Positions 23,817 to 57,109 of a stretch of 64,000 nt of DNA are shown here, piece by piece. Source of the stretch: a virus. Location of the stretch: positions 33,354-97,353 of the IMG/VR virus record IMGVR_UViG_3300032296_001209. One strand, written 5' to 3'. The notes under the pieces were generated by a model. It did not search any database and was not told the DNA's origin. It worked only from the letters and a program-made list of their open reading frames with translations. A program made the translations under genes and the position numbers. How positions within the stretch are numbered: position 1 is the stretch's first letter; each line of letters starts with the position of its first letter.

Positions 23817-26800
23817 TTAAGAGCCCTTAGTTTTCCTTCTGTTAGACATTGCAGATTGTGCTGCTAAAATATTACCACGCTCATCTACATCTATATCTCC
23901 GAATATACTTTTAACCATAGCAGCCTGAACTGTAGGATTCTTAGTATCAATTCCCATTTCAGTTAAGTATTTTGCTAAATCTTTACCCTTTTGTCCAGGT
24001 GGAAGTTTTTGAGCTGGTGTATAATAAGTTTTAAGAGCAGCAGGATCAACAAAGAAATTAGGATATAAACTGTTCATTTGATCTGTTATAAATCTATTTT
24101 CTAATGCAGCATTTACATAATCAACAGCCTCTCTTCTACCAGCTCTTCTAGCATTATCATATTGCTGATTAGTAGCAACAGTCTTATCATAGAAGTCATT
24201 AGCAGCTAATTGATTTCTAAAGTTAGCTTCATTGATTAATTGCTTATTAGCTTGCTCAAACTGATTAGCTACACCAACATTTAAGTTATTATATCTACCT
24301 AAGATATTAGCAGCATTAGCTAAACCTTTACCTTGTACTTCAGAGAACCTTGTATTGAAAGCTTGTGGTCCAGTAAACTGAGCCAAGTTTGCACCAGCAA
24401 TATTAGCCATCTCAGCATTTGCTGCTAACTCTCTATTAGGATCATAGAATGTAGGCTCCATAGGCTCTGCAGTAAACTGTGCCATTCTAGGATAGTATCT
24501 ATTGATACTAGCTAAGTCACCAACAGCAGCTGCAGTATTTAATACATCTTGAGGATAGAAACCAATAGGTGGTCTTTTTGGAACCGGTGGAGGATTTAAT
24601 TGTCCTGGCTCAAGAGGATCTCTTGGGGTATTTGGAGTATTTGGAGTCTCTGGAGTTTCATCATCAAAATAGTTTGGAACAGAATAAGTTACTCTACCAA
24701 ATTTTACATCTCTTTGATAAGGATCTTTACTATTAGGATCTTTTGGTTTAAAGTAAGCTTTACCTGTGGCTTTAATAGATTTTTCATTAACCTTATCTTG
24801 GAACCATCCTGCAGCTTTATTACCAACAGTTTCTAAATTTTTTAATCTATCTGGATCATTGTCTACAGTTTCTAAATCTTGTTTAAATTTATTAAATCCT
24901 CCTGGATATTCTTTTTCAATCCAATCACCATGTCTGTCTTGAAAATCTTTCCACTCTGCAGAACTTAAAGTTCCTTCAGTTCTAGCTGAAGCTTCAGCAC
25001 TTGGTAAATAAATACCTGTATTTTTTACACGAGGTTGATTAGCAAACTGTCCTGCAGGAATTCTGGTATAGATAACTTTATTACCTTTTCTAACTCTCTC
25101 ATCAATTGCAGTTCCAATTTCTGGAGAACCATATTGTGTAAACTTTGTATCTTCTGCGGTTCTGACTTTTCTAGTTCCTGGTATTTCATTACCTGCCTCA
25201 TCAACAAGATATTTCTGATCACCTTCATAATACAAATAAGCTTTCTTTCCTGTTGTTTTACTAGTTCTTTCTTCAATAAAAACTTTAGCATATGGATTTG
25301 GCTTTGCTACTTCTTGAGGAGTTTCTCCTGCAGTTTGATACTGTGGAATATTACCACCATATTCATAATCGCCCCATTCTGAACTTACAGGATCTGTACT
25401 GGGTTTAGCTACATTAACTTTAGGCTTTGGTGTTTGAGCAGCAGGTTTAACTTTTTGTGTTACAACCGGTTGTTTAACTGGTGCTGGGGCAATGGTATCT
25501 ACTTGTTGTTTAGCAAACGGTTGATTAAGAGTATTTAAAAACTCTTGTCTTCCTTTATCTACTCTTTCAATGTAAGATGGAATACCACTAGATTTAATAA
25601 CTAAATCAATTGCAGCTTCTGGATTATTAAATGTATAATCTTGAAATCTCTGAGGAGACATATTTTGTGAAGATACGCTATATGGTGCAGCTTGCATATT
25701 AGCTGTAGGTTTAACTTGCCATCTACCATCTTTATATTCTATATCCTGAGCTGTATATGGTGTTGTTCTATTAACTGGAACATTTGGTGTTGCTCTCTGA
25801 GTAATTCCAGTATTTGGATTACCAGCGTAGTAATTTCTTTTTAATTTTTCAAACTCTGCCATACCATCCATTCTACTAATACCATTTTGAGCTTTAGGAA
25901 TACCACCATACATAGCCATTGCCATACCTTCTTCAGGAGATGGTGGTAAGAACTGTGCTGGATCTAATCCTACTTTATCCATATATGGTACAGCAATTTG
26001 TGGAACACCTTGAGGAAATCCTTTCTGTGATTCTTGTACAAGAGCTAACTTACCTAAGTTAGAGATATAGTTATCAGCCATCATAACAGCTGTCTTTTTA
26101 CGTAAGGGATCGGTCTCAGAATATAAGCCTTCACGCAACTCTTTATTATTAAGATCAAACTTCTTAGAAATTTTAGCTGGAGTATAACCACCTTTCTTAG
26201 CAGCAAACCCAAAAGATTCTAATATAGCGGGATCTTTAATCTTCATAGCCTTTGTATCTGAATAAATAAAACTATCTGGAGTAGCTTTATCTCCAGCTAA
26301 TGGAGTACCACCTTCTGAGTGACGCTTACCACCAATCTTAAAGAACTCAGGAATTGTACTATTAGTACCTTTACGTACTAGAGTCTCTCCCTTCTCTGCT
26401 TCTAATACAGAGATAGATCTAGGATCCGGTCCTAATGTCTGACCATATTGTTCTTGTGGTTCACCTTCAGTAGCACCATTAAACATGTTCATCATGTAAG
26501 CTGAGTTACCATATAACTGATTAACAGCTTTAGCATCTTGAGTACCACCATATCCAGCTTGTGGTAAACTTGTAATTTTTACTTTTCTTTTCATTTCTCC
26601 ACCCATTTGGGCCTCTTTATTATAACCTTTAATTATAGCTTCATCCGGTCTAAAGTCTAAACCAAAACCAGGAGTATTAGTTAAGTAATCTCCTCTATTA
26701 CCAGAGTAATCTTCCGGTCTAACATTATATAAGTTATCAGCTAAAAACTGATCTCTAAAATCTTCTTCAGTACTTCTATCTTGAATCTTTCTAGCAACAG

Positions 26801-27440
26801 AACTAAATATATCTGTACCAGCTAATAACATAGGACCCACATAAGGATTACCTTTTTGATTAGGTTTTTTTGTTTTAATATCGCCAAATGGTTCTAAGCC
26901 CATTAACTTCCTAGTATCTTCAGGAATCTGATCAGTATAAGATTTTCTAATAGCATCCTTTGTACTAAGAATGCCAGACTCTAATTTAGTATTTCTAGGA
27001 TATAAGCTTAAAGAACGTCCTCCCATAGATGTAGGCAACTTACTATAATCAATAGGAGTTGTATTTTCAAAAAATAAAGGTTCTCCAACACTAGTTTTTG
27101 GTGCAAAAGATGAAGGGCGTAGACCTTGAATGCTTGGCATACCTACATTAAAAGATCCTGTAGTATTAGGATCTCCTTGATATACATCAGCATAAAATGA
27201 AGGATTAGTATTTAAATTAAACGCAGGCATTCCTACATTAAAGTTACCACTAGTATTATTAATACCAGAATAAACATCTGCAGAAATTGCTCCAGAGGTT
27301 GGTGCACTTCCAAAAGACGGATAGGGATTATTTTTTTGCCAGGTGGCTAAATAATCTGGACGTAGCACATTAGGTGCAGGTAAGTTATTAAATCCGTATT
27401 GAGCTTTAGGTAAGCTCTTAACCCTTACTTTCTTTTTCAT
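23817..27440 (-). CDS. Modular virion cargo protein
   Basis: 1207 aa, Cys-free, low-complexity linkers. EAEKGE...GGKRHSEGGTPL...FIYSD block; duplicated KKVxxxSLPxAxYG leader; Asn/Ala-rich coiled-coil C-terminus. Confidence 0.6.
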   Translation of the reverse strand: MKKKVRVKSLPKAQYGFNNLPAPNVLRPDYLATWQKNNPYPSFGSAPTSGAISADVYSGINNTSGNFNVGMPAFNLNTNPSFYADVYQGDPNTTGSFNVGMPSIQGLRPSSFAPKTSVGEPLFFENTTPIDYSKLPTSMGGRSLSLYPRNTKLESGILSTKDAIRKSYTDQIPEDTRKLMGLEPFGDIKTKKPNQKGNPYVGPMLLAGTDIFSSVARKIQDRSTEEDFRDQFLADNLYNVRPEDYSGNRGDYLTNTPGFGLDFRPDEAIIKGYNKEAQMGGEMKRKVKITSLPQAGYGGTQDAKAVNQLYGNSAYMMNMFNGATEGEPQEQYGQTLGPDPRSISVLEAEKGETLVRKGTNSTIPEFFKIGGKRHSEGGTPLAGDKATPDSFIYSDTKAMKIKDPAILESFGFAAKKGGYTPAKISKKFDLNNKELREGLYSETDPLRKKTAVMMADNYISNLGKLALVQESQKGFPQGVPQIAVPYMDKVGLDPAQFLPPSPEEGMAMAMYGGIPKAQNGISRMDGMAEFEKLKRNYYAGNPNTGITQRATPNVPVNRTTPYTAQDIEYKDGRWQVKPTANMQAAPYSVSSQNMSPQRFQDYTFNNPEAAIDLVIKSSGIPSYIERVDKGRQEFLNTLNQPFAKQQVDTIAPAPVKQPVVTQKVKPAAQTPKPKVNVAKPSTDPVSSEWGDYEYGGNIPQYQTAGETPQEVAKPNPYAKVFIEERTSKTTGKKAYLYYEGDQKYLVDEAGNEIPGTRKVRTAEDTKFTQYGSPEIGTAIDERVRKGNKVIYTRIPAGQFANQPRVKNTGIYLPSAEASARTEGTLSSAEWKDFQDRHGDWIEKEYPGGFNKFKQDLETVDNDPDRLKNLETVGNKAAGWFQDKVNEKSIKATGKAYFKPKDPNSKDPYQRDVKFGRVTYSVPNYFDDETPETPNTPNTPRDPLEPGQLNPPPVPKRPPIGFYPQDVLNTAAAVGDLASINRYYPRMAQFTAEPMEPTFYDPNRELAANAEMANIAGANLAQFTGPQAFNTRFSEVQGKGLANAANILGRYNNLNVGVANQFEQANKQLINEANFRNQLAANDFYDKTVATNQQYDNARRAGRREAVDYVNAALENRFITDQMNSLYPNFFVDPAALKTYYTPAQKLPPGQKGKDLAKYLTEMGIDTKNPTVQAAMVKSIFGDIDVDERGNILAAQSAMSNRRKTKGS

Positions 27441-27988
27441 GTCTTATTTTTTAATATACTATCACAAAAGAAATATAATTCATCTAAAGTTAAATCTGAT
27501 TTCATTTGATTTATAGCCATGCAAACAAATTGTATATTACCTTGGATATATCCTTTTTTACTATCAATTCTATCTATACTTAAGTTAGTTAAAATTCTAC
27601 CTTTATTACTTAAATATGTCATATCAATTTGAGATAAAGCACATTTACCTTCTTGCTTATTCCATATTTCTTTTAAATAATCTAAATCAATATTAACTTC
27701 TAACTTTAAACGATTCGCTCTATCTTTTAATCCTAAAAATCTTTTATTTAATAACTGTTCAAAAGTAGAATTATTATTACTTAATAATCTTTTTTTATAC
27801 TGTGAGTGCTTACAATCCTTACATCTTCTATCTTTACCATCTCTATAAAAAATATTACTCTCTTCAGAATTATTATCAAACAAATTAATATCTTTATAGT
27901 CTTTGCATTTATAACAATACAAATTCCCTAAATCATCTTTTTGTTTAAATTTAGTTCTGTGTCTTCTTTTTTTATCAGATGTATTCAA
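27437..27988 (-). mobile_element. Free-standing HNH-type homing endonuclease
   Basis: 183 aa; CxxC...CxxC zinc finger, then GKCALS...SIDRIDSKKGYIQGNIQFVC..IN..K. Very AT-rich; overlaps both neighbours. Confidence 0.8.
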
Positions 27989-30374
27989 CTTTGTATCCTT
28001 TATTAATTAAATCTTGTATTTCTTCATCAGATAATTCATATTCTTCACCCATAACATAACCACCATTCTGATAATTTCTTCCACCAAATACATGAGCAAA
28101 GTTAGCTCTTTTAACTTGTGTTGCACTATAGTCCTCTTTATTTGCAAGTACCTTTCTAGCAAACTCTTGCACACCCATACCGGCTCTATTAGCTGACTCA
28201 GTAAACTTACCTTTATTAGCAGGATTAATATTTATACCACCATAAGCCATTTGAGGAGATTGGCCTTGTTGTGCTTCTTGAATAGCCTGCATAATCTTTT
28301 GAATAGCTTCTTGTTGTTCTAAAGGTGGTAAAGATTGTAACTGTGCCATAAGTTGTTCAGGATCTGTTTGAGTCATTTGTGCATACATCTGAATAGCTTG
28401 CATAACTTCATCTTGTTGACCACCCTGTTGATATACTTTACCTCCACACTCATAACAAGGTTGACCACCTTTCATCATCTGGTACATAGCATCTATATCC
28501 ATTTCACCACCATACATGTCAGTATCACCACCATACATTCTTCTACCCATTTTACGGAGTTCTTTATTTGATGGAGTTTGACCAGTGCCTAGTCTTGGAT
28601 CATTAGAATTCATGAACTCTTGATAACCTCTTTGCTTACGACCAGCTCTAATTTCAGAGGCAATAATACCAGCGGCAGTTCCAATACCTAAACCAATACC
28701 AGCTATTGTATCATTACGTTTCTTTTTCTTAGCAGCAGCTTCTGCAGCGGCAGCTTTTTGTTCTTCTGTTAAAGCTGGACCACCTTCTTGAAATCTACGG
28801 GCTTGTTGATCAAATGCAGACTTCTGTAAATTAGTACCTTGATTTAATACTTTACCAGTATTAGGATCTACAGCTTGACTAAATGTAGTTGAACTAGAAA
28901 TAGTTCCTGGTGCAGAATTAAATATCATACGTCCTGTCTGATCTACAGCTGATTGAGGATTAGAGGACTGATAATAAGAATAAATGTCATTACGTGATGG
29001 TGCTTGTTTTACACCAGCTTTATTAAATTGCTGAAGCTGTTGATTATAATATTGTTCAAATCTAGGATCATTATCAATACCAGGAGACATAAATGTATTA
29101 ATAGGGGCAGAACCATAAGTTCCTCCTTCTGCCATATTAGATAATATCTTAGCTTGTACGTAAGGAGGTAATGCTTGGAATCCAGCATTAGTTGGTTGAC
29201 CACCTTTAGCATAACCATAGTCATCTAACTTATCTAAGTTACCAGCAGCGGCAAAACGAGCACGTGCAATTTCAGGAGGCATCATCTCACCACCATTAGC
29301 CCAAGTACCAAAACGTTTGTGCCAGTATAAAGGAGAGAATGGATCTGTAGCCTTAGCTGAGTTTTTACCACCCATTCTATTCCAGAAATTATCTTTACGT
29401 TTCTTAGAACCATGCTGGCTAAAGTCTTTCATACCAACATAACCACCATGTACAATTTTATACTTATCACCCTTCTTAGCTAATACCATCCATTTCTTAC
29501 CAGCTCTATCAGATTTTCTTTTAGCACCTACTTTACTAAAGCCTCTGTTCTTATAACGCTGAGGAATACCACCCATCTTCATCTCTTCCATCTCACCCAT
29601 GTTCATATCAATATCTTCTTCCTCTTCCTCTCCTTCTTCCTCTCCTTCTTCAGAACCTTCATTGAATTGAAGATAGTCAGCAACAGAAGAAATATAATCA
29701 TCAGCTAAAGTTAATTTACTAGCTACCCAAGGCTCAACCTCTGATTCACCATTAATAAAGTTTTGCAATCTAGCAATCTTATCATTCATAGCCATTATCT
29801 GACCCATTGCCATTTCACCACCTTCATCATAATAGTTATCACGCATCATCATACCTACACCACCCATCTGCATAGCTGGCATACCCATAACATTCATAGC
29901 TAACTTTGCCATCTGCATTTTATCTTCACCATTTCCTTCTGCATTATCCATAGCAGTTCCGGCAGCCATTGCACCATTAACCATAAAATCACCAATAGCA
30001 TTCGTAGGATTGTTAGCTCTATCCTCATTCATCTTATTATAATAAGAAGCCATGTTACCATCATAGTTAGGATATTGGAATATTTGTTGTTGCTCCATAC
30101 CACCACCGGTTTGAGCTTTTCTATATCCACCACCACGGTTCTTGTAAGTCTTCACAAGCCATGCAGAACCATAAGCTGAAGGCCAGGTATCAAATTTAGC
30201 TTTAGCCTCGGATTTAACACGAGAATATAATCCAGGATTAGTGGGTACATTACCACCTTTCTTCATCTCTCTGGCTTCAGGATAAGCTTGAAAGAATGCT
30301 TCTTCTGTAGGAAACATAGAATAGAATTCTTCCTCAGAATTAACACCAGCCATTTGTAAAAATTTATCTTTCAT
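27975..30374 (-). CDS. Polyprotein-like internal virion protein made of small modules separated by xxxGG motifs
   Basis: Likely start MKDKF at 30374. About 16 [MYFAW]-x-x-GG-like motifs. Modules include PSAYGSAWLVKTYK (DUF5872-like), KKWMV..KIVHGG..DFSQH..DPFSPLYW (DUF5754-like) and NKGKFT..KRANFA. Confidence 0.6.
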   Translation of the reverse strand: MKDKFLQMAGVNSEEEFYSMFPTEEAFFQAYPEAREMKKGGNVPTNPGLYSRVKSEAKAKFDTWPSAYGSAWLVKTYKNRGGGYRKAQTGGGMEQQQIFQYPNYDGNMASYYNKMNEDRANNPTNAIGDFMVNGAMAAGTAMDNAEGNGEDKMQMAKLAMNVMGMPAMQMGGVGMMMRDNYYDEGGEMAMGQIMAMNDKIARLQNFINGESEVEPWVASKLTLADDYISSVADYLQFNEGSEEGEEEGEEEEEDIDMNMGEMEEMKMGGIPQRYKNRGFSKVGAKRKSDRAGKKWMVLAKKGDKYKIVHGGYVGMKDFSQHGSKKRKDNFWNRMGGKNSAKATDPFSPLYWHKRFGTWANGGEMMPPEIARARFAAAGNLDKLDDYGYAKGGQPTNAGFQALPPYVQAKILSNMAEGGTYGSAPINTFMSPGIDNDPRFEQYYNQQLQQFNKAGVKQAPSRNDIYSYYQSSNPQSAVDQTGRMIFNSAPGTISSSTTFSQAVDPNTGKVLNQGTNLQKSAFDQQARRFQEGGPALTEEQKAAAAEAAAKKKKRNDTIAGIGLGIGTAAGIIASEIRAGRKQRGYQEFMNSNDPRLGTGQTPSNKELRKMGRRMYGGDTDMYGGEMDIDAMYQMMKGGQPCYECGGKVYQQGGQQDEVMQAIQMYAQMTQTDPEQLMAQLQSLPPLEQQEAIQKIMQAIQEAQQGQSPQMAYGGININPANKGKFTESANRAGMGVQEFARKVLANKEDYSATQVKRANFAHVFGGRNYQNGGYVMGEEYELSDEEIQDLINKGYKVEYI

Positions 30375-30379
30375 TTTAG

Positions 30380-33300
30380 TTATTTGTATTTGTTTAGCCA
30401 ACCGGTTTGACCACCTTCTTTGCGGTATGTTGGTGTAGTATTATTTAATAGATCGTAATAGTTTTTAATTCTTCTAGTATAAACACTATCTCCTTGTGCA
30501 TCTCCTGATTTTAAAGTATTAGGTGATTGCCAGGCATAACCAATTCTTTCAGCAACACTTAAATCAGCATTACCTTTTGTTTTCATTGTAACTACCAAGC
30601 TACCATTTTTAACAGATACTTTATATTTATCTGCTGCACCTGCTGTTTTATTAAGTAATTTTTGTGCAGCTACAGGATCTGGAGAACTTAACATACCACC
30701 TTCAAAAGGAGATAGATCAATTCTTTTATTAGCTTCTTCTACAAAAAATCCATCAGCATTATATTTAGATGTATTAGATCTAAGTGCATCTTTTATAATA
30801 TTAGAATTTTTTGTAAAGCTTCTATCTTTTGGTACTTTACCTTCATTATAATATCTCTCTGAATCTTTATCTAATTTAGATAGATATATCATAGTAGCAA
30901 CAGCTGATCCAGATGGTGTCTTAATAAGTTCAGGCTTTAAAATGTTATTACCACCATCATTTAAAATATATGGTTTGCTTGCAGCCTTTTTTAATTTATC
31001 ATCTTTAAATATATTGTCAGGATTTAATTGTGTCATACCAATAGTACTACCATCAATTATACCTAATGCTCCACCGCCCTCACTTTCTTGAGCAGAAATA
31101 GCTAAAGCAACTTTAGCTAATTCATCATACTTTTCAGAACTTATATTTAAGTTACGCATTAATTCACCTTTATTATTCATTAAAGCTGAATTAAATTCTG
31201 TCATCATTTGTTTATTAAATCTAGGAGCTCTCTTTGCTGATCCTTCTGGTATTTGTGCCCAAGGTTGATTAGCTGCAGCTAAGATTTTATTAGGATTAAC
31301 ATTAGTAGGGGGGATATAATTAAGTAATATACCTTGACTTCTAAGATTATCTTGTGTATTATTTAATATAGACTTTGGTGCAGATATATTTTCTAACTCA
31401 TAACTAAGAGAACTTCCAATATTTGCTTTAGCTTCTGTTAAAGTCATATACTTCTTTAAGAAACCATCATATACTATTGGTTCTCCAGTCTCACTATATC
31501 CAGTAACCATAGTACTATGATGACTTGGTTGCATACCAAACTGTTTATTATAACCTTTACTTCTACCACTATAGCTAGAATCTTTTTTATTTGCAGGACC
31601 CCAACCAATTACAGCTCCAACAGGTATTTGTTTGTAATCAATTGGAGTTGGATTATTAATATTAAATAAATTCTTACCACCATTTGCAACAATTACACCA
31701 TGAATATCCCAGCTATCTACCGTGCCTGAACCTGAGTCTCCAGCAAAATAAGGATACTGTTTAATATCATTAGCAGTTGGTGTTCCTTTTTTACTATGTA
31801 TCTTTAAATCATTACTCCAAATGTCAGAGCTTGTAGGAATACCTTGTATTCTTCCAGGAAGCATATCATAAGCATTTCTTGTAGTCTCTAAACAATTACC
31901 CTTAGGACAATATTCTTCAACTTTATTTAAATAAGCTAAATCAGCTTTGGTAATAGTAAGATCAGCTAAGTTAACAATATCATTTTTTGCTACTACTTTT
32001 CTTACAGCAGGTCTGGTTATTGCTCTTGGAGCATTACCTATAGGAACTAAAGGTGTATCAGCAGCTACTGGTTTTGGTTTAATGGGTGCAACAGGTTTTG
32101 GTTTCTCTGTCATTACCCTTTTAAACTCTGGATCTGATTCTAAAATTTCTGAGTAAGAAGGTGTTTTAACTGAAGGAATAGCAGACTCACTCATTGCTTG
32201 TTCCATTAAATCCTCTTGATCGTAATATACCTTATCTCTTAATATTCTTTGTTTTTGTTCTGGAAGAATTACAGGACTAACATTTTTAATATTAGCTAAC
32301 TGTGCATTTGATAAAGATCCTTTTTGAGAATTTATTTCTGCTAATCTTCTAGAATTAATATTACTTAAATCCGGTCCACTTTGTAAAATACTACTTTCAT
32401 CACCAGACTTTAAATAATACTTATATGTATCATCTTCAGGATCCTGGTAGATACCATATTTCTCACTTAAAGGATTCTTATAGAAGTTAGCAATATCTAT
32501 TTTAGAATTTAATTCTGGAAGATTCTCTCCACCATCTTGATAGTTATTAAGCCAACCACCATTCTTTTGTTCTGGTAATTGGGATGCTGCAGCTGCTCCT
32601 GCTACTAATGGAGCAACAGTTCTCATAGAACCATATACAGTTCCTGGATTATTAAAATATCCAAAGGCTTTTCCTTTTTTAATTGCATCTTCCCAAAGTC
32701 CACTGGATGATTGAGATTGTGAATTAAAACCAGGTTTTACTCTACCGAGATCTAGCTCTTTAAGATATTCATTTATACTATTATATGTACCAGTACCTCT
32801 TCTAGGAAGAGCATCAGAAAATACACTTGCTGTTGTATTCCTCATGTTTAATCCAGGGATAGCTTTAAAGTATTCGGCATTTGCAATATCTTCTACTTCA
32901 CCACGCCATTGACCAGGATTTATATCTAACATCCAAGTAGATTCTCCTTGAGGAATATTTCTATTACCCATAATTCCCCAACGGTCTGCGTAGTCTTGAA
33001 AACGAGGATCTATATTACCAGCTTCATCCATAAATCCACGATCTCTTAACTGATTAAGTACAGCAGTATCTGGAGCAAGTTTTTCAATTTGAGCTGGAGT
33101 ATTAAATGTTAATGCGCCAGATGGTGATAATCCTTTAACAGAATAGTCTAATCCTGATTTATTATTTCTAGAAATAATCTCATTAAGTCTATCTAATCTA
33201 GAATTAAAAATATCTACATACTCACTATTATCCATAGGTATAGTATTTGATAAATTTAAATTCCTTGTATTAGTATTAAAACCTAAACCTAAATTTATAG

Positions 33301-35812
33301 CAGGTTCATAAGGAACTACTTCACCTGTAGGTTTTAACACTGTCTGTTCAAATTCAGATTCAGACATTTTACTTAAAACCTCTTTATCTTTAGGAGATGC
33401 ATTCTTTAATATCTCTTCTTTTGTTAATCCAGATCTATTTTTAGCAATCTTTTTAAGTTTTCTTAAATCAATAGATTCAGCAGGATTTGCAAAAAGATTT
33501 GAAACATCTAACTCACTAGCATTATTATTCATCATCCTTACCCACTCATCAAAATAAGGACGTTCTATATCTTGATTAAAATAAGAATTAAATTGTCCAG
33601 TAGTTGGATCCACTATAATTTCTGATGGTGGTGAAGCTAATTGATTAGAAACATTAGGAGTAAAATCTGGTCTTACTCCTCTAGATCTATTTCTAATCAT
33701 ATTTTGTAAAGATCCTTTACCTAGATTTTTAGCTATACCAGCACCTACTAAATTAGTGGGATCTAATATAGCATCAGCTAAGAAAGAACCTACAGGATTC
33801 TGAATATTCATTGCTTCAGATGGCATCTGTACTTTACCAGTTGCTCCATATACAGAAGCTAACTGTGGTGCACTAAACGGAGCCATTACTGTTTCCATCA
33901 TAGCAGTACCTATACCACCAGCACCAGATGCATCATTGGGTTGTTTATACCAATCTTTGCCCCCGGTTGCAGTATTTATTCTTCTAGCCCATTGCTCCAT
34001 AAAATCATCTGATCTTTCATTGTATGGATCTAGACCAATTGCTTTTTCTCCTTTATGTACATATCCTCTTAACTTATCTAACCAAGAACGTTTCTTACGT
34101 ATATCAGCACCCTGCATTCTCTCTACATCAAAAGGAACTTCACCAGCATCTTGATATATATCTAACCAGTTGGTTTGACCACCTTGTTCGTATGTACTAA
34201 ATGGTAAGTATTTGCTAAGAGCAGACATATTTTTTTGACCTTTTTTCTGACCTCTTAAATACTGAACCGCTTTATCCTGATCTGGAAATAGAGAAGTTTT
34301 TCCACGACCTAAAAAAGTATTCTCACCTTTACGTAATTGATTTATTCTATCTGCATCAAGTATCCCTTCTTCTGGGTTATACAAAAATGGAGCAGTAGAC
34401 ATAGAGTTTAAATCCGTTTGTGTTAATTTACCAGTTCGCATTCTATCAACAGCACCTTCGCCGAGCACAAAATTTAACTCGTCATTTGTTAATTTACCGG
34501 TACCCATACTCATAATTCTTGCTTCTTCGGGCATACCTTCACCAAACTGTTGATTTATTTTGTATTCAGGAAGACGATCTCTCATTATCCTTACCGGTTC
34601 TATTTCACCTTTCCAGTAATCTCTGTAGACATATGAATCTTCTCGTGGAGTTTTCAAGTTGCTTACATAAAAATCTGCACGTTGTGGATTATCTAATGCC
34701 CATCTACCAGTAACATCATCAGGCGTTGCAACATTATTAAAATTTGCATGTTCGGTTCTGTATACGTTTTTATAAGTAGGCAATGTTAGTTTACCTGCAA
34801 TTCTAGAAGTTTCTGCTACATCATCGGCGTATCTTGAAACTGCTTGCGCCGCATTTTTAACCAAAGGTTTTGCTATTTTTCCTAATCCTTTTGTTAATGG
34901 AACAACATCAAAAGCGTTTAATCCTGCATTCAATAAATCGCTTCCTGCTTCAGCAAAATCACCCTGTGCGGCATTAACAGCAGCTGATCCCGTATTACCT
35001 ACCAAATCGATAGCAGAAAATGGATATGCAGCTGGGTTAACCATGTCTAATACATAGTCTAACGGATCAGCAGAACCTTTACGTTGTTGTGCTTGTGCTA
35101 CTAATGAACTAGCGTCTCTTGCTTTTTCATAAGCAGATTTAGCTTCTCCTTGACTAACACTACCTACACGTTTAGCATACTCTGCAGCTTCTGCAGCTTT
35201 TCTATTAGCAGCAGTAACGTTTGTATTCTGATTAACTACTCTAGTATTATCAGTATAGCCAGCATTACCAGCAGGACTAGTTCTCATATAGGGCTTACCT
35301 ACATTAGGTGTCCAACCAGCCCAACCACCTGTTTGATATTCATCTAACCATCCTGTCTCACCACCATCTTCTCTACGTTTATGATTATAGTCTATGCGCT
35401 TACCAGATGTTTTCTCTCTTTTAAACTTAGCTTTTTCTGATGATGACATTTCTGATGTAGTCTTAGGAGTTGTTTCATTTACCCGTTTGCTTGGTCTGCA
35501 TGCAGGATATGGTCTACCGTCTTTATCTTTACCTGATCTACCACATGCTTTACCTGTCTTAACATCCACCCATTTTTCATCAAACCATTGTGCTAAACCA
35601 CCTTTACCCATCTGGGGTATCTCAGTTACATAGTTACCGGGGAATGTATAATCCTGACCGGGCATCATCATTTGCTGATTACCTAAATCATCTATACCTA
35701 ATACAGGATAGTTAACCCCCTTCATTGTTATATCAGAAGAGGGTATAATTGTAACCTCACCGGGATATGCCCACTGACCTAAAGGAGATATGATAGGTTT
35801 TTTTCTAGCCAT
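30380..35812 (-). CDS. Multidomain virion cargo protein with C-terminal Cys-His amidase-like and lysozyme-like domains
   Basis: 1810 aa. WFDEKWVDV..CGR..YPACRPSKRV (DUF5872-like); four WLxxY repeats; NCL...DSW...HHS...VYDG (NlpC/P60/CHAP-like); AQES...GMTQ (transglycosylase-like). Confidence 0.65.
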   Translation of the reverse strand: MARKKPIISPLGQWAYPGEVTIIPSSDITMKGVNYPVLGIDDLGNQQMMMPGQDYTFPGNYVTEIPQMGKGGLAQWFDEKWVDVKTGKACGRSGKDKDGRPYPACRPSKRVNETTPKTTSEMSSSEKAKFKREKTSGKRIDYNHKRREDGGETGWLDEYQTGGWAGWTPNVGKPYMRTSPAGNAGYTDNTRVVNQNTNVTAANRKAAEAAEYAKRVGSVSQGEAKSAYEKARDASSLVAQAQQRKGSADPLDYVLDMVNPAAYPFSAIDLVGNTGSAAVNAAQGDFAEAGSDLLNAGLNAFDVVPLTKGLGKIAKPLVKNAAQAVSRYADDVAETSRIAGKLTLPTYKNVYRTEHANFNNVATPDDVTGRWALDNPQRADFYVSNLKTPREDSYVYRDYWKGEIEPVRIMRDRLPEYKINQQFGEGMPEEARIMSMGTGKLTNDELNFVLGEGAVDRMRTGKLTQTDLNSMSTAPFLYNPEEGILDADRINQLRKGENTFLGRGKTSLFPDQDKAVQYLRGQKKGQKNMSALSKYLPFSTYEQGGQTNWLDIYQDAGEVPFDVERMQGADIRKKRSWLDKLRGYVHKGEKAIGLDPYNERSDDFMEQWARRINTATGGKDWYKQPNDASGAGGIGTAMMETVMAPFSAPQLASVYGATGKVQMPSEAMNIQNPVGSFLADAILDPTNLVGAGIAKNLGKGSLQNMIRNRSRGVRPDFTPNVSNQLASPPSEIIVDPTTGQFNSYFNQDIERPYFDEWVRMMNNNASELDVSNLFANPAESIDLRKLKKIAKNRSGLTKEEILKNASPKDKEVLSKMSESEFEQTVLKPTGEVVPYEPAINLGLGFNTNTRNLNLSNTIPMDNSEYVDIFNSRLDRLNEIISRNNKSGLDYSVKGLSPSGALTFNTPAQIEKLAPDTAVLNQLRDRGFMDEAGNIDPRFQDYADRWGIMGNRNIPQGESTWMLDINPGQWRGEVEDIANAEYFKAIPGLNMRNTTASVFSDALPRRGTGTYNSINEYLKELDLGRVKPGFNSQSQSSSGLWEDAIKKGKAFGYFNNPGTVYGSMRTVAPLVAGAAAASQLPEQKNGGWLNNYQDGGENLPELNSKIDIANFYKNPLSEKYGIYQDPEDDTYKYYLKSGDESSILQSGPDLSNINSRRLAEINSQKGSLSNAQLANIKNVSPVILPEQKQRILRDKVYYDQEDLMEQAMSESAIPSVKTPSYSEILESDPEFKRVMTEKPKPVAPIKPKPVAADTPLVPIGNAPRAITRPAVRKVVAKNDIVNLADLTITKADLAYLNKVEEYCPKGNCLETTRNAYDMLPGRIQGIPTSSDIWSNDLKIHSKKGTPTANDIKQYPYFAGDSGSGTVDSWDIHGVIVANGGKNLFNINNPTPIDYKQIPVGAVIGWGPANKKDSSYSGRSKGYNKQFGMQPSHHSTMVTGYSETGEPIVYDGFLKKYMTLTEAKANIGSSLSYELENISAPKSILNNTQDNLRSQGILLNYIPPTNVNPNKILAAANQPWAQIPEGSAKRAPRFNKQMMTEFNSALMNNKGELMRNLNISSEKYDELAKVALAISAQESEGGGALGIIDGSTIGMTQLNPDNIFKDDKLKKAASKPYILNDGGNNILKPELIKTPSGSAVATMIYLSKLDKDSERYYNEGKVPKDRSFTKNSNIIKDALRSNTSKYNADGFFVEEANKRIDLSPFEGGMLSSPDPVAAQKLLNKTAGAADKYKVSVKNGSLVVTMKTKGNADLSVAERIGYAWQSPNTLKSGDAQGDSVYTRRIKNYYDLLNNTTPTYRKEGGQTGWLNKYK

Positions 35813-35816
35813 TTTA

Positions 35817-38800
35817 TTACCTAAATGAAGCTAACAATTTGTTATTACTGAGCTTCAATAAGAACTTAGATGAGCCAGAAACAAGTTTTTTCAATATAAC
35901 CTTGTTAAGGTAGTGTCTAAATTTCTTTCTTTGTGTAGCTCCCTTATTATAATTTACATAAGTTGCGTTAATATTCCTAATATAACCGTTGGCTTCAGTG
36001 ACCCACATGGGTGCAAAAGTACCAGTAAATTCACCACGGTCATTAGTAATATCCCAGAACTGATTAAACCTATACTTCTGTTCTTCTTTAGAGAATAAGA
36101 TATCAATGTTATTGACATTTACTAAAGGATAGTTATTAATTAAGTAAGGATTATTCTTAGGAGATAAGTTTAATCTTAAGTCCCCAGAGATCTGTTCTGT
36201 GTTATATACAATAGCCCGGTCAAAGTTCTCATCTAACAGATGATGATAATCTAAACAGTTAGGAGAGTATCTATAGCATTCTAAGATATATTCTACTGAT
36301 CTGGTTGTTGTAACGGTTTGACCTTGGTTCTGTACATACTCTATCTCAAAAGGATAGTTAACACCATAGTAGTTACAATAAGAATCACATACTAAGTTAT
36401 GTTTCCAGATACCATTATCCTTTACTGTCATATAGTAAGTCTTACTAGACATTACTAAGTTAGGATGCCAGTCATGGAATGATATAAAAGCTTTAGCTTT
36501 AGGATCATAGCTTACTGTCCAGGATGCATCTTCAAAGTAGGTAGGATCACCTAGATCAAACTGATATCCGGGGAAGTCTACATGCCCAAACTTATTACTG
36601 AATAAATAGATTACCTTACCCTTGTACTGTGGCTTAAGTTTAAAGTCACGCTTACAGAAGAATACAATCTCGTTAATGTTATCATATGTAGTTTGACAAC
36701 CTACACCAATGATTGTATTATCTAGAATATTAGATTCTATATCTGGGAAGTCTAGTAACAAAGCATAAGGACTATACTGTGAGAACCACCACTTCATACC
36801 GGACTTAGATATATCTTGTAGTCCTTGACCATAAGAGAATACTTTACCCTGATTTTGACTCATGTAGAATAATCCGGCTGGTGTATTGATTACAGAGAAT
36901 CTATTTTGACAGCTACCGTATTCAAACTCAGGATCAGCATTTACTAAATTCTGTAATGGTTGTGCATTAAACAACTGACCATCACCAATAGATAGTTTAG
37001 TACCACCATTAAGATCTAATGTTTCCACACCCTGGAATAAAACAGGAGATTCACCACTCAACATGATAATGGCCCCGGTCTTACCAACAGAACGCATGCT
37101 AACTACTTTAGAATCAAAGTCATAGTAATTATTAGCTAAGAACTGTCTCCAGTTATCTTTACTTAATTCAAACTGTTGTTGCAAAGAATAGATTACCCTT
37201 GTATCATATGTTGTGTAACATGATGTATTAGAGGGATCATAAATCCTAGATTGTAAGTTACCCCATGATGCAAAGTTTGAGAAGTGCTTACTAATACTTA
37301 AAGCATAATCATACTTCTGATAGTTAGTATCTTTGATATATGGAGTCCGGAACATTTCCTCATAATCTGTGTAGGTAGTAAAGTCATAATGTCTCTTACC
37401 TGGATCATCTCCATAATCTCTGTATGCTAAGTTAATCTCTGATTCTACATAAAAATCCCGGATACCAGAGTTAAACAAATACATGTATGCAAATCTTACC
37501 ATGAATGCACCAGATACTTTTCTTCTATCTAAATGGTGAAAGTCATTAGGTAATGCTTGATCACCACCGAATATACCACCCAATAAATCAGCGGCATTAT
37601 ACTTAGTAGTATCCATCCAATATCTTGGATAAGGAAGCATGTTATATAATCTATAATCCCACTCAGTATTATCTGGCAGATCTTGCATCCACTGAGAGAA
37701 ATAAAAGAATGTAGATTTCTCAGTATAGCGGTTAACATACATGTCACCACCAAAGATTACAGCTGATGTTGATCTAGCATTAGGTAAATAACCAGATGTC
37801 CATAAATTAATACAACCAACCGGTACTTGTCTGATATTATCTAACTGACCATACTGATTATCATTCTTAACTTTTAATGCAGCATAGTGAGCAGATGTAA
37901 CTGAAGACTGAGTAAAGCTTTCTGGTTTTCTCCAGATATCTCTTGCTGTAACAGTTTGAGGTTCAGCAGGAGCAGTAACATCATTTAAACCATAAGAGCT
38001 AGGAGCAGGTCTTCCATTCTCTCCTCTAGCCATTTGACCAATAGTAAATAATGTATTATCTACAACTGTAGGATCTGCAATAGGAGAGTTTAAAGATACA
38101 CTTACAGTGCTTGCCCGGAACAAGTTATTAATCCGATAGCTAGTATCATAATCCTGAATAACAGGATCAATGTATAAAGACTTGATAATCTCTCTTCTTC
38201 TATTACCTACGGGTGAAGAAGCAAAGTTTCTATAGAAACCATGTGATACATATTGATAAGCAAACTGTCTTTTACCACCAGCTGCTTCTATACCTTCAAT
38301 TAAACTTTGTGTAGATGCTAACCAGTAATAACCAAATAAAATAACATACTGACCTACTGCTCCAATTAATCCAAGAACAGCACCTGTAAATGGTTGAGCT
38401 GTAGTAGCAGTTCCGGCAATTGCTGGAATACCTGCTGTAATACCAGCAGAGATAAGAAAGTCTGTAATAGGAACAGCATTTCGTGCAGCAGCAACACCTA
38501 ATGCAATACCAGCAAGGTTAGCAATGATAGCAGATGTATCTGTAATAAACTTATCTTTAGGATGATTATCTACAGGTCTAAATCTACCTTCTACATCTCC
38601 CCATACTTGACCATATACTTTTAATTCTGTAGCTGATAAGAAAGGATTCCGGAATGTGGTTTCAGGTGAGTGAAAAGAAAAGATATCTCTCTTAACTCCA
38701 TCAAACAATTGTACATCTACAGCAGCAGAATTTCCAGTATGATACTTATCATCATCCATAGTACCACCACGAGTCTGTCTTATTTTAGGTAATCTCTTTT

Positions 38801-40532
38801 TATCTCTACCTAAGAAAGAATCATGATCTAAGAAGTTGTACGGATAGTTTACGTACAATCCAGTAATATTACTATCTATAATATCATAAGACCTCATGTT
38901 ATTAATGAGACCCTTTGCAATAATAGATCTATTAGCTTCTCTTGATCCTCTTAAGATCTCATAACCAATAATACTTCTGATAAGATTACCAGCAGAATCT
39001 TTTGGAAACTCAATATTAGAGAACTCTACACCTAAAGAAACAATAGTATCATTAGTTGTATTGTAGTTAGGAATAATAATGTCATCCGGAAACTTGTGGT
39101 GTCTAATTTCTAAACCACATAAGTTATCCCATACATCTGGTTTATTATCAGGATACTTTTCAGTAGACTGCCAGTAGGCCATCTCACCTTTAAATACAAT
39201 TGTACCACCATCATCAGTAGTACCAGTTGCTGGTACTTTAGTAGCAGTGTTGTTTACTTGCCAGTTTTGTTCTGGACCAAAGTTTACGATGTGATCCAGA
39301 CCAGAGTTATTACTAAGCTCTCCGGGTTTTGATGCACGTCCTGGTATATGGTAGCTAGATGACTTAGCACCTGTGTCATAAATCCAGCGTATAAAAAAGC
39401 TATATACTTCATCTCTTAAAAATGTTGGTTTGTTTCCGCCTTTATAATAATAGTCAGCAGGATATTCTACTCCTACCCAACTAGTAGCAATCTTATTAGC
39501 TAACGGTTGGTAGTTAAAGTCTTCATAGGTAGTTGGAGCAATACGGATAAGGTATTCATTTACATTATACATACCCTGTGATTTCTCATAAGCCGGGGTA
39601 CGTAATGGTATCTGCTCCAAAGGAACTGTGGGTAATGTAGGATCTACAGCATCTAATGATACAGTACTAGTCTGAGTAGAATAGTAACCAATTCTTCTAG
39701 CTACAGCTTGCTGATTAACAAAGCCTATAACTACTAACTCAAACTCATCATACTCTGTATCTAAACCATTAATGAAAATATCTAATGACCCGTTTACATT
39801 ATCATGTGTCCACAAAGCTTGTACGTTAGAGATAGCTAAGTAATCAGATACTCTAACTCCATTAACAGAATAAGCAATTGTAGCTTGGTATGATCCATTA
39901 AGTAATGTACCTAAGCCATTACCTTTCTTTACTTGAATACAAGGGGTTTTAGCATATGCTGCTAATCTTAGTTTATCACAATCAATAGTACCAGTAGATA
40001 CTTCATCTTTACATGGACCAGGAAGAATATCTGTAGTAAGATAAGGAACACCCTGCCAGTTACCTACTGGATAAGGCCATGAGTCCTGCTTACCAATATT
40101 CATAGTGCGGGATACATTGTATCCATCATCCCAATATAACTGCCATGAACAATCAGAGTTATATTTAGATACACCAATTACCGGATACTCTTTAAAGAAA
40201 TTAAAGCACTTGTTAAAAGGATCATTGTAGATAGTATTATACTCACAAGTCTCCTCATGAAATAATCCAATCTCAGAAGCAAAGTTATTACTAGAATAAA
40301 TAGCCCAGTAACCATCACCAATATACACTGTACCAATAATAGTATATGGGGCTCTAGTACATAATATGTTACTAGGCTCATTACCCAATACTCCAACGTC
40401 TCCAGAAGGAGAGTTGTTTACAGCATTTCTAGCATGCGTCCAATAACCTTCACCTACGTATGTATCATTTACATCTTTCAGTAAACCTTTATTGTATATC
40501 TCGGTGTGTATTAAACTGGTCTTGCCATCCAT
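35817..40532 (-). CDS. Tail stabilization / muzzle protein
   Basis: ~1571 aa, start MDGKT at 40532 (TAATG overlap). KGLLKD..WTHARNA, RDEVYSF, IRHHKFP, FGGDMYV and WTVSYDP..FISFHDW blocks; canonical position after the ring genes. Confidence 0.8.
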   Translation of the reverse strand: MDGKTSLIHTEIYNKGLLKDVNDTYVGEGYWTHARNAVNNSPSGDVGVLGNEPSNILCTRAPYTIIGTVYIGDGYWAIYSSNNFASEIGLFHEETCEYNTIYNDPFNKCFNFFKEYPVIGVSKYNSDCSWQLYWDDGYNVSRTMNIGKQDSWPYPVGNWQGVPYLTTDILPGPCKDEVSTGTIDCDKLRLAAYAKTPCIQVKKGNGLGTLLNGSYQATIAYSVNGVRVSDYLAISNVQALWTHDNVNGSLDIFINGLDTEYDEFELVVIGFVNQQAVARRIGYYSTQTSTVSLDAVDPTLPTVPLEQIPLRTPAYEKSQGMYNVNEYLIRIAPTTYEDFNYQPLANKIATSWVGVEYPADYYYKGGNKPTFLRDEVYSFFIRWIYDTGAKSSSYHIPGRASKPGELSNNSGLDHIVNFGPEQNWQVNNTATKVPATGTTDDGGTIVFKGEMAYWQSTEKYPDNKPDVWDNLCGLEIRHHKFPDDIIIPNYNTTNDTIVSLGVEFSNIEFPKDSAGNLIRSIIGYEILRGSREANRSIIAKGLINNMRSYDIIDSNITGLYVNYPYNFLDHDSFLGRDKKRLPKIRQTRGGTMDDDKYHTGNSAAVDVQLFDGVKRDIFSFHSPETTFRNPFLSATELKVYGQVWGDVEGRFRPVDNHPKDKFITDTSAIIANLAGIALGVAAARNAVPITDFLISAGITAGIPAIAGTATTAQPFTGAVLGLIGAVGQYVILFGYYWLASTQSLIEGIEAAGGKRQFAYQYVSHGFYRNFASSPVGNRRREIIKSLYIDPVIQDYDTSYRINNLFRASTVSVSLNSPIADPTVVDNTLFTIGQMARGENGRPAPSSYGLNDVTAPAEPQTVTARDIWRKPESFTQSSVTSAHYAALKVKNDNQYGQLDNIRQVPVGCINLWTSGYLPNARSTSAVIFGGDMYVNRYTEKSTFFYFSQWMQDLPDNTEWDYRLYNMLPYPRYWMDTTKYNAADLLGGIFGGDQALPNDFHHLDRRKVSGAFMVRFAYMYLFNSGIRDFYVESEINLAYRDYGDDPGKRHYDFTTYTDYEEMFRTPYIKDTNYQKYDYALSISKHFSNFASWGNLQSRIYDPSNTSCYTTYDTRVIYSLQQQFELSKDNWRQFLANNYYDFDSKVVSMRSVGKTGAIIMLSGESPVLFQGVETLDLNGGTKLSIGDGQLFNAQPLQNLVNADPEFEYGSCQNRFSVINTPAGLFYMSQNQGKVFSYGQGLQDISKSGMKWWFSQYSPYALLLDFPDIESNILDNTIIGVGCQTTYDNINEIVFFCKRDFKLKPQYKGKVIYLFSNKFGHVDFPGYQFDLGDPTYFEDASWTVSYDPKAKAFISFHDWHPNLVMSSKTYYMTVKDNGIWKHNLVCDSYCNYYGVNYPFEIEYVQNQGQTVTTTRSVEYILECYRYSPNCLDYHHLLDENFDRAIVYNTEQISGDLRLNLSPKNNPYLINNYPLVNVNNIDILFSKEEQKYRFNQFWDITNDRGEFTGTFAPMWVTEANGYIRNINATYVNYNKGATQRKKFRHYLNKVILKKLVSGSSKFLLKLSNNKLLASFR

Positions 40533-41395
40533 TATCTCCAACTATTATGATTGTAACTCTTGAACATATCGTAATATTTATTGTATTGAGCCTTACGGTT
40601 CATCTCCCACATCTTATACATCTCTGCAAAGTTTGGAGTGTTAACTAATGACAAAGCATTATTACGGGCTGCTCTTAATCTCTGTTCAACTAAATTAAGT
40701 TTTTGTACTACATCCTCACCATTCATGTATAAGTTCTCAAGCAATCTCTGCTTAACAGCATACTCATAGTATTCATTTACATAAGGATTATCTAACACCA
40801 TCAAGTTACCCTCTTCATCTTCCATAGTACCCTGGTAGTTAACATATACTTTACCATGCTCTAGGTTAAGATAGATGAAGTTATTTTTAAGTTGGCCTTT
40901 GTATGGAGATTTCCAGGTAAGGTTAGGACAATCACAAGAGATAGTTTTAGAGTTATTATCTAAAGAGATAACTGTGCTAATCTCATATGTCCGGGTCTCA
41001 AACTGTGTAGTCTGGATTACTTGTAATAAATCACCACACTGTGTTAAGCATGTGTTTGTAGGAGTACAAGGATCTAATGGTCCGGGAACAAATGGTACTA
41101 CTACGTCCTCTCTATGTGTACCAGAAATAGCAGGCTGTGTAACTGTATATTCACCACACAACATAGCGTAGTTTAATACATAGAAATCATCCGGAAGTCT
41201 TACTTTGCTATTAACAATATCAAGTACAACCTCTTTAGTCATATTAATCCGGAGACCTAAATCATAATTAACTCTCTGTACAACCTTGATAAGTTGCTGT
41301 GGCTCTATCATATTCTCTAGAGCATACATAGAGAAATCAACACTTACATCTTCAAGTAATTGATTGAATGTACGGTATTTTAATTCTGTAAGCAT
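40532..41395 (-). CDS. Tail tubular / ring protein
   Basis: 287 aa; LPDDF...GKVYVNYQG..DEEGNLMVLD motif; upstream of the stabilization protein. Confidence 0.75.
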   Translation of the reverse strand: MLTELKYRTFNQLLEDVSVDFSMYALENMIEPQQLIKVVQRVNYDLGLRINMTKEVVLDIVNSKVRLPDDFYVLNYAMLCGEYTVTQPAISGTHREDVVVPFVPGPLDPCTPTNTCLTQCGDLLQVIQTTQFETRTYEISTVISLDNNSKTISCDCPNLTWKSPYKGQLKNNFIYLNLEHGKVYVNYQGTMEDEEGNLMVLDNPYVNEYYEYAVKQRLLENLYMNGEDVVQKLNLVEQRLRAARNNALSLVNTPNFAEMYKMWEMNRKAQYNKYYDMFKSYNHNSWR

Positions 41396-56938: not shown

Positions 56939-56967
56939 TAGGGGGATTATTAGTCCCCCTATTTTTT
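56939..56967. terminator. GC hairpin, T-run on the + strand side
   Basis: tagggggatt-att-agtcccccta-tttttt. Confidence 0.6.
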
Positions 56968-57109
56968 ACTTCTTTTTCTTAACCACAGTTTTCTTAACCA
57001 TACCACCCATTTTCATGTAACCACCCATCATAGATGATTCACGTCCGGTTGGGCTACCCTTTGGTACAGGTTTAGAGAAATTAGGTTTACTTGCTTTTTT
57101 AGTTGCCAT
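56966..57109 (-). CDS. Unannotated 47-aa basic peptide with xxxGG motifs
   Basis: MATKKASKPNFSKPVPKGSPTGRESSMMGGYMKMGGMVKKTVVKKKK*; fills the gap between two genes. Confidence 0.75.
   Translation of the reverse strand: MATKKASKPNFSKPVPKGSPTGRESSMMGGYMKMGGMVKKTVVKKKK

Follow-up and report, generated by a model that had tools for sequence, protein, structure and literature searches.

A recurrent glycine-glycine junction peptide in a modular cargo protein of an uncultured crAss-like phage

Introduction

Among the Crassvirales are the most abundant phages of the human gut, and their aquatic relatives are numerous; particles of these phages have several megadaltons of protein to load and eject. 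In PhicrAss001, the muzzle gene gp44 is followed by the genes for cargo proteins C1 (gp45) and C2 (gp46) and then by those for virion RNA-polymerase proteins, and all of these products were found in virions (PMC10172136). Here we describe a 64,000-nucleotide stretch (hereafter the window; 34% G+C) that covers positions 33,354 to 97,353 of the IMG/VR virus record IMGVR_UViG_3300032296_001209, a record of 97,353 bp rated 81% complete. On the minus strand of the window, at 27975-30374, lies an open reading frame (ORF) of 799 amino acids (aa), referred to as cargo B, which is well supported as one of three adjacent modular cargo/ejection proteins of an uncultured crAss-like phage. Nearly every joint between its modules carries the peptide [M/Y/F/W]-x-x-G-G, referred to as the seam, and as one conserved peptide shared by thousands of cargo proteins it offers a concrete handle on how such proteins are loaded and ejected.

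Gp45 of PhicrAss001 (Bayfield et al., 2023, PMC10172136; crAss_CARG1 PF25725) is likewise encoded after the muzzle gene, has one hydrophobic helix as cargo B does, and both proteins are thought to be stored in an extended state in capsid and tail before being ejected. Pieces bounded by GG are also present in gp45 (FSAYGG, FAEGGG, AFGG-WLNTQ-GG, MFAYGG), but unlike in cargo B the strict motif is not significantly enriched (three against 1.35 expected, p=0.15). The module sets of the two proteins are mostly different, and cassette turnover is far greater in the clade of cargo B. By BLASTP, only one module of about 50 aa (NKGKFT..KRA(N/T)FA) aligns between them with 34% identity over 107 columns (E=0.007), and two proteins in BFVD named "Cargo protein 1 compact domain-containing protein" match cargo B (E=6e-4 and 1e-2). 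The compact portal-binding domain itself (crAss_CARG1 PF25725) gave no match at E<=10 across the 97-kb record and none in Pfam scans of the cargo proteins.

A second point of comparison is the class called polyvalent proteins by Aravind's group, in which many unrelated small domains are placed on one chain that moves along with the DNA (Iyer, Burroughs, Anand, de Souza, Aravind, 2017, PMC5512222). Processing of these chains by zincin-like MPTase domains is predicted in that paper, in which the words "glycine" and "linker" do not occur (PMC5512222). That cargo B belongs to this class is well supported: several unrelated domains, among them DUF5872, DUF5754 and NKGKFT, share its chain, and its long relatives add SLT, Amidase_2, Glucosaminidase, YkuD, DUF3597 and ART-PolyVal. 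Extensive domain shuffling and the occurrence of ART-PolyVal and wall hydrolases in family members are common to both, whereas the modules of cargo B are unusually small (8-100 aa), are joined by one conserved peptide and are not accompanied by an MPTase.

Virion proteins that are cut at short motifs offer a third comparison. The adenovirus protease adenain cuts (M/L/I)XGG-X and pS273R of African swine fever virus (ASFV) cuts GG-X, and cargo B resembles these systems in that a hydrophobic residue followed by GG stands between pieces of virion core proteins, some of them small and basic; it differs from the adenain site in that the hydrophobic residue would be at P5 and not at P4. In phages T4 and phiKZ, gp21 (cutting L/I-x-E) and gp175 (cutting S/A/G-x-E) cleave internal head proteins at short motifs and are precedents for a cleavage at the seam. 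The T4 capsid-targeting sequences and the phiKZ inner body share with cargo B a short repeated motif at the leaders and joints of packaged internal proteins, but those phages encode a recognizable prohead protease and their motif ends in Glu, whereas that of cargo B ends in GG. In the double-glycine leader system the hydrophobic residue is at -4, a register other than that of the cargo motif, which is moreover mostly internal, and the C39 peptidase (PF03412) was absent from five relatives at least 94% complete. The literature search found no paper describing the motif and none on polyprotein processing in Crassvirales, on the function of DUF5872 or DUF5754, or on WLDKY-type strings.

Results and Discussion

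Cargo B is punctuated by a recurrent motif

The cargo B frame starts with an ATG at 30374 (MKDKFLQMAG...) and stops at 27975-27977; a plus-strand reading of 27975-30374 was ruled out as it has no open frame. Motif enrichment in cargo B was judged against 20,000 composition-preserving shuffles. The protein holds 20 runs of two or three glycines, equal to 22 overlapping GG dipeptides where 10.5 are expected (p=2e-4), and 13 copies of the strict motif [MYFW]-x-x-GG against an expected 1.7 +/- 1.3, a number to which no shuffle came. All 16 motif strings listed in a preliminary description of this stretch are present, together with four more GG sites (NRGGG 81, VHGG 310, RMGG 335, VFGG 764), and the excess over composition-matched shuffles on which that description depended was found. 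A protein with 11.5% Gly and 6.6% Met might be thought to yield such strings by composition alone, but the shuffles, the register kept in 836 sequence contexts and the conservation across homologues (see below) refute this explanation, whose probability is negligible.

The preliminary description had also attributed the motif to both neighboring cargo proteins and to a peptide of 47 aa, and this holds in graded form. Cargo A (1810 aa; 30380..35812, minus strand) has four strict motifs against 1.4 expected (p=0.05) and, in addition, a longer spacer GG-x-x-[GN]-W-L-x-x-Y-Q-x-GG, including the form GG-xx-GWLxxYQ-x-GG, of which a shortened copy (GGQTGWLNKYK) forms its extreme C-terminus. Cargo C (1207 aa; 23817..27440, minus strand) is enriched only for a looser pattern, an aromatic residue or Met within three residues of GG (9 versus 2.7, p=0.0035; QMGG, GYGG, MYGG, EYGG). 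The very basic 47-aa peptide (56966..57109, minus strand), encoded in the virion-gene region, has two adjacent motifs (SMMGG-YMKMGG, p=3e-4). In the remaining proteome, M, Y, F or W stands at -3 in only 10 of 82 GG sites (12%). A fiber protein of 1090 aa (46794-50066, minus strand) with 16 regular-expression matches was set aside, as these stem from a 15-residue SF[VI]GGG repeat unrelated to the cargo seams.

Homologues gain and lose modules in register with the motif

Cargo B has more than 825 homologues, and a HMMER search with its sequence against 1.84 billion representatives (50% representatives) gave 3791 matches. The matched stretches begin and end at motifs (267-364, 183-364, 708-798, 407-532), and when compared with 149 diverse members, the stretch ends lay at a median of 2 aa from a GG, 76% of them within 5 aa versus 26% at random. 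For insertions and deletions, 120 close homologues with lengths of 541-903 aa were analyzed. A cassette of 30 aa, 364-393, is absent in 57 of these and each break point falls one residue past a GG, so that one GG-to-GG unit was lost. Among the 33 distinct deletions, 8 were strictly in register, compared with 0.7% at random, and 14 had both ends within 5 aa of a GG. Gain and loss of modules at GG motifs in homologues, the comparison proposed in the preliminary description, was therefore borne out.

The position of the hydrophobic residue is equally constrained. When 2879 GG sites of 254 family members were clustered by the sequence upstream of them, which gave 836 distinct contexts, M, Y, F or W was found exactly at -3 in 52% of the contexts as compared with a background of 15% (p ~5e-140), whereas these residues were not enriched at -5, only slightly so at -6, -4 and -1, and depleted at -2 (9% versus 15%). 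An alignment of 61 sequences gives conservation of 88% and 89% for the first and second glycine and of about 55% for the x and flanking positions, and at most strict sites conservation of the hydrophobic class is 81-100%. Proline directly after the motif is rare (1.6%). The strict register together with the near-invariant glycines indicates selection at the level of the protein.

A signal in the nucleic acid, either DNA microhomology at which recombination takes place or ribosome-binding sites with start codons inside the gene, from which nested products would be made, would also fit the insertions and deletions being in register with the motif. GGT makes up 83% of the glycine codons in GG runs and 63% of those elsewhere, GGTGGT is common, and the Met of the motif could serve as a start codon. 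However, the residues at -3 have codons of four unrelated families (ATG, TAY, TTY, TGG), which again shows that selection acts on the protein, and six fixed bases alone are too few for homologous exchange. Nor is GGTGGT similar to a Shine-Dalgarno sequence: internal starts driven by GGAGG-like glycine codons were rejected, as the seams are mostly GGT GGT and none has GGAGG. A nucleic-acid signal is very improbable.

The motif behaves as part of the junction. Proteins on long contigs in which DUF5754 is the sole or last module end in ...HKRFGTW and lack x-x-GG, and those in which it is the first module may start with MSIPERYKN; the terminal copies without x-x-GG indicate that x-x-GG is a junction element and not a part of each module, and it appears only where another module follows. 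The DUF5872 copy of cyanophage S-BM3 has no seam ahead of the module. Single modules are also found as stand-alone tiny proteins in other viruses (BFVD matches of 44-57 aa). At the chain ends, 90 of the 149 diverse members share with cargo B a terminal tail of about 25 aa (..TPEQLExLRxQGYxFEII-like), another 14 end in a WLxxY-type peptide, as does cargo A, and in 32 the motif comes within the first 26 residues, at the end of a brief N-terminal leader such as MKNWLDKFQKGG or MEYMKNGG.

One homologue of 903 aa (P0041) carries, at about 66-377, an insertion of 312 aa that splits the DUF5872 module between ..KFDRWP and SAYGSAWL... The inserted piece starts with Cys (CVPVSTSKALT..) and ends in ..TGN before a Ser, which is intein-like, and if it were an intein its position would point to PSAYGS as a site that is critical for function.

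Module architecture of cargo B

It is well supported that cargo B has a beads-on-a-string architecture with small, independently folding modules, one likely membrane helix, constant ends and a variable middle. A model was calculated with AlphaFold2 from 61 homologues and had a mean predicted local distance difference test score (pLDDT) of 56.7. Confident blocks (1-86, 267-356, 366-388, 436-472, 573-611, 654-703, 717-765, and 779-799) alternate with segments of pLDDT below 50. These segments make up 47% of the chain and hold 11 of the 13 strict motifs (binomial p ~0.006), and the other two lie in confidence dips between confident blocks. Nearly every joint has the motif in a disordered linker, with the hydrophobic residue closing the upstream module, and predicted helices stop just ahead of GG at 259-266, 404-415, and 751-763. 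VHGG and RMGG lie inside the DUF5754 fold and are not seam-type sites. In these respects the view that cargo B is a chain of small modules punctuated by the motif, with motifs at the borders of distinct blocks, agrees with the model. A Foldseek search with the whole model against the PDB gave no match at E<=0.001.

The N-terminus is constant among homologues and consists of a conserved module (MKDKFL..) followed, at the joint MKKGG, by a DUF5872 module (aa 1-86; 30117..30374, minus strand, as for all parts of cargo B); Pfam places DUF5872 at aa 44-86 (PF19197, E=1e-7), and pLDDT ranges from 66 to 89. A segment rich in Met, Asn, Gln and Gly with AQTGGG, MQMGG and YDEGG follows (aa 87-257; 29604..30116; pLDDT below 50). 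The basic DUF5754 module (PF19058, with the domain at aa 286-334) lies between MKMGG and WANGG (aa 267-362; 29289..29576; pLDDT ~90) and is the most mobile cassette of the family, the HMMER stretch 267-364 recurring in proteins of 94 to 2662 aa. Next comes a zone of variable cassettes with WANGG, YAKGG, MAEGG, FQEGG, RMYGG and DMYGG (aa 363-623; 28506..29288), marked by steps in occupancy and by in-register insertions and deletions. This zone includes the one hydrophobic helix, IAGIGLGIGTAAGIIAS (aa 557-573; 28656..28706), which by its sequence is likely a membrane segment and may be compared with the predicted transmembrane helix of gp45 (PMC10172136). Five motifs follow one another in an array of about 40 residues (RMYGG DTDMYGG EMDIDAMYQMMKGG QPCYECGG KVYQQGG) at aa 611-652 (28419..28544), with pLDDT below 50 across 612-653; occupancy among homologues is ~0.9 for aa 620-652 and ~0.5-0.7 ahead of that. 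The basic NKGKFT...KRANFA module (aa 714-765; 28080..28235) is the one that is common to gp45, where it is found at aa 381-428, and tblastn matches it in gut crAss-like phages. The chain closes with the conserved C-terminal tail (..EEIQDLINKGYKVEYI; aa 773-799; 27978..28058), which has a helix at 783-791 (pLDDT ~70).

Is the seam cut?

The reading that we favor, tentatively and at somewhat less than even probability, is that the motif is a junction-specific seam that stays uncut, that it keeps the modules insulated from one another yet hinged, as threading through portal and tail demands, and that it sets the sites of cassette exchange. An uncut seam in the virion would act as a helix stop and hinge, so that neighboring modules would fold independently, and would allow the modules to be threaded through portal and tail one after another, a route that has been proposed for PhicrAss001 gp45. 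The seam would be the only place at which a cassette could be inserted, deleted or swapped without harm, and for this reason rearrangements would all be in register with it. Some partner may also read the seam peptide. Since the seam marks where a module starts and ends, it allows mini-domains of unknown function to be catalogued and predicts where cassettes are exchanged, and if it is not cut it would amount to a design rule for proteins that pass through a phage tail.

Several points weigh against a purely passive role. A hinge has no obvious need for a hydrophobic residue at exactly -3 or for two near-invariant glycines, and such conservation is more typical of a site that is recognized; the scarcity of proline right after the motif is also seen at many protease sites. 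Neither the five motifs crowded into 40 residues (611-652) nor the early motifs in 32 of the 149 members are explained by a hinge. In relatives, periplasmic wall hydrolases and cytoplasmic modules share one chain, which would be easier to understand if they were released.

A further point of this kind comes from PhicrAss001. The MALDI (matrix-assisted laser desorption/ionization) peak lists of its virion bands (PMC6235969 source data), which cover bands 1-10, were re-matched by peptide mass, with gp45 taken from L003:11988-14516. By this procedure gp50+gp47, gp49, portal gp20, gp26, gp22, gp25 and gp23 were assigned to bands 3-9, with clean matches for portal, tail proteins and polymerase subunits, whereas gp45 (90.8 kDa) was not convincingly found in bands 1-10 (~58 kDa or more), beside the equally abundant portal protein of 92 kDa. 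In agreement with this, gp45 is not among the gel identifications listed in the 2018 paper on this phage (PMC6235969). With respect to processing of gp45, the gel-band result neither proves nor excludes it.

The same observations can be read as those of a protease site, in which a protease of the phage or of the host would cleave the seam behind the two glycines or between them, either inside the procapsid or once the protein has been injected, and mini-proteins would be freed: basic DNA-binding-like modules, wall hydrolases and ART. The motif-ending leaders would then act like the capsid-targeting sequences of T4 and be removed after loading. We consider this possible but not probable, at about one chance in three. 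It would account for a position-specific signature that recurs, with a hydrophobic P5 and with GG at P2-P1, across hundreds of junctions of unrelated context, for glycines that are near-invariant while their flanks vary, for the location of the motif in disordered and accessible linkers, for the depletion of Pro at what would be P1', for the leaders, for the modules that also occur as stand-alone small proteins, and for gp45 not being seen as a band of ~58 kDa or more. The 47-aa basic peptide with its two sites recalls adenovirus pre-mu. Cleavage at the seams would imply a protease and a maturation pathway that are both new and still to be found, the system would be a tailed-phage counterpart of the maturation of adenovirus and ASFV core proteins, and dozens of small injected effectors would arise from three genes.

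The sites themselves speak in part against cleavage. Cutting the array at aa 611-652 would leave scraps of 5-14 residues, and a cut at the end of cargo A, GGQTGWLNKYK, would free just a 9-mer. The GG sites of gp45 at 427, 434 and 447 fall within 425-552, the portal-bound piece that is resolved without a break (gp45 sequence and PMC10172136), and are uncut in the cryo-EM (cryo-electron microscopy) model, though they lie within a fold.

The preliminary description had called for a search of the rest of the genome for a GG-specific protease, and none was recognized. Scanning the cargo proteins, together with the majority of ORFs of at least ~120 aa, against Pfam and PHROG did not reveal a maturation protease in this 81% complete genome, and MPTase-PolyVal (PF18818) is absent from it. 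In the five relatives mentioned above, a panel of six families (Peptidase_C48, C39, C5, the HK97-type S78, ClpP, M23) was negative while positive controls matched; this includes the clan-CE (adenain/Ulp1-type) domains PF02902 and PF00770, though divergent or new folds could escape detection. The sole peptidase-like gene seen lies in the early region of the genome (G000:C1 1-33353, outside the window); its product is a putative metallopeptidase of the DUF2201_N type that also has a VWA-like domain, and gp77 of PhicrAss001 has a comparable "metalloprotease domain" annotation. In the crassvirus papers searched no maturation protease was found, and the strings "protease", "cleav" and "proteol" do not occur in PMC10172136.

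Cargo A holds a Cys...His module (YCPKGNCLETTRNAY ... QPSHHST) and an SLT-like segment (AQESEGGG...GMTQ), at aa ~1300-1470 and ~1560-1610, which are both invisible to Pfam and each occur in only 2 of 17 related loci. The Cys/His module was considered as seam protease and rejected: only weak CHAP/NlpC-P60 leads were obtained (ESM Atlas 0.88-0.89) with no PDB-sequence or Pfam match, and being present in just 2 of 17 loci it cannot serve the whole family. Genuine processing in its full form, in which strings of mini-proteins would be loaded via short aromatic leaders or handles and cut at [M/Y/F/W]-x-x-GG by an unrecognized or host-borrowed protease, is in our estimate possible but less probable than not.

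The aromatic residue or Met between GG spacers might also act as a docking site or sticker, that is, as one of many short linear motifs that together would order the loading and release of the cargo by holding it to the portal, the tail barrel, the muzzle interior, or to itself as a condensed cargo phase. The tandem array of GG-flanked short peptides at aa 611-652 fits such a role, as do linkers rich in Met, Tyr, Gln, Asn and Gly and the GG-xx-GWLxxYQ-x-GG element, which is displayed between flexible glycines and recurs at extreme N- and C-termini across the family. In gp45, GWLNTQ stands right at the start of the portal-bound resolved domain and a second such string, NWLDTL, near the C-terminus, and the tail-barrel helix 214-245 starts 4 residues past FSAYGG (gp45 sequence and PMC10172136). 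On the other hand, terminal module copies drop x-x-GG, the polymerase-like proteins (3147, 1855 and 1329 aa), whose counterparts are packaged in PhicrAss001, are without the motif, and the proposal names no binding partner. A docking role is unlikely on balance, and for the first two of these reasons the idea of the preliminary description that GG might be a packaging tag on every mini-protein fits poorly.

Genomic context and neighboring genes

The protein encoded at 35817..40541 (minus strand) matches the Pfam muzzle family crAss_MUZ (PF25731, E=3e-37), and this match fixes the context as a crAss-like tail and cargo module; its closest cultured relatives are phages of Cellulophaga, Flavobacterium and Leptolyngbya. 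The muzzle gene is followed on the same strand by those for cargo A, cargo B, a 183-aa HNH endonuclease and cargo C, and then for proteins of 855, 1329, 3147, 586 and 1855 aa. The order muzzle, A, B, C is kept in eight related IMG/VR loci. From this synteny it is most likely that cargo B is carried in the particle and injected. A virion protein of Cellulophaga phage phi4:1, gp040 (detected by tandem mass spectrometry according to its record), resembles the cargo B family at its N-terminus and has a weak motif (4 versus 0.7 expected, p=0.007), and its placement in the family is by these two features only.

Throughout the eight loci, cargo A always starts MARKKPIISPLGQWAYPG-like and, in closely related loci, ends GGQTxWLNKY-like, its length being 649-1986 aa, whereas cargo B always starts MKDKFL-like and ends GYGIEYLD-like in closely related loci, with lengths of 541-838 aa. 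In addition to its spacers, cargo A of the window holds DUF5872, SLT-like and Cys/His CHAP-like modules. Six loci (L007, L010, L012, L014, L016, L019) were compared for cargo A, which there measures 649-1986 aa: the first ~25 residues are kept in all and the last ~10 in five of the six, and whole cassettes the size of enzymes appear and vanish between these fixed ends.

The 1090-aa protein set aside above is 20% Gly and Cys-rich and is built of ~15-residue repeats (..N.A.G..SF[VI]GGG..), as in a fiber resembling a beta-helix or an adhesin head. The 47-aa peptide (MATKKASKPNF...SMMGGYMKMGGMVKKTVVKKKK) has 13 Lys/Arg residues and is encoded between virion-gene ORFs; two of five relatives have it as well, conserved at 96% and 89% and with the frame open, and it is likely the product of a real small gene. 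The 183-aa ORF between cargo B and cargo C (27437-27988, minus strand), which overlaps both, is HNH/endonuclease VII-like (PHROG endonuclease, E=3e-22). In the six closely related loci that cover the B/C junction, cargo C follows within ~5 nucleotides of cargo B and this ORF is absent, which gives it the appearance of a recent homing-endonuclease insertion.

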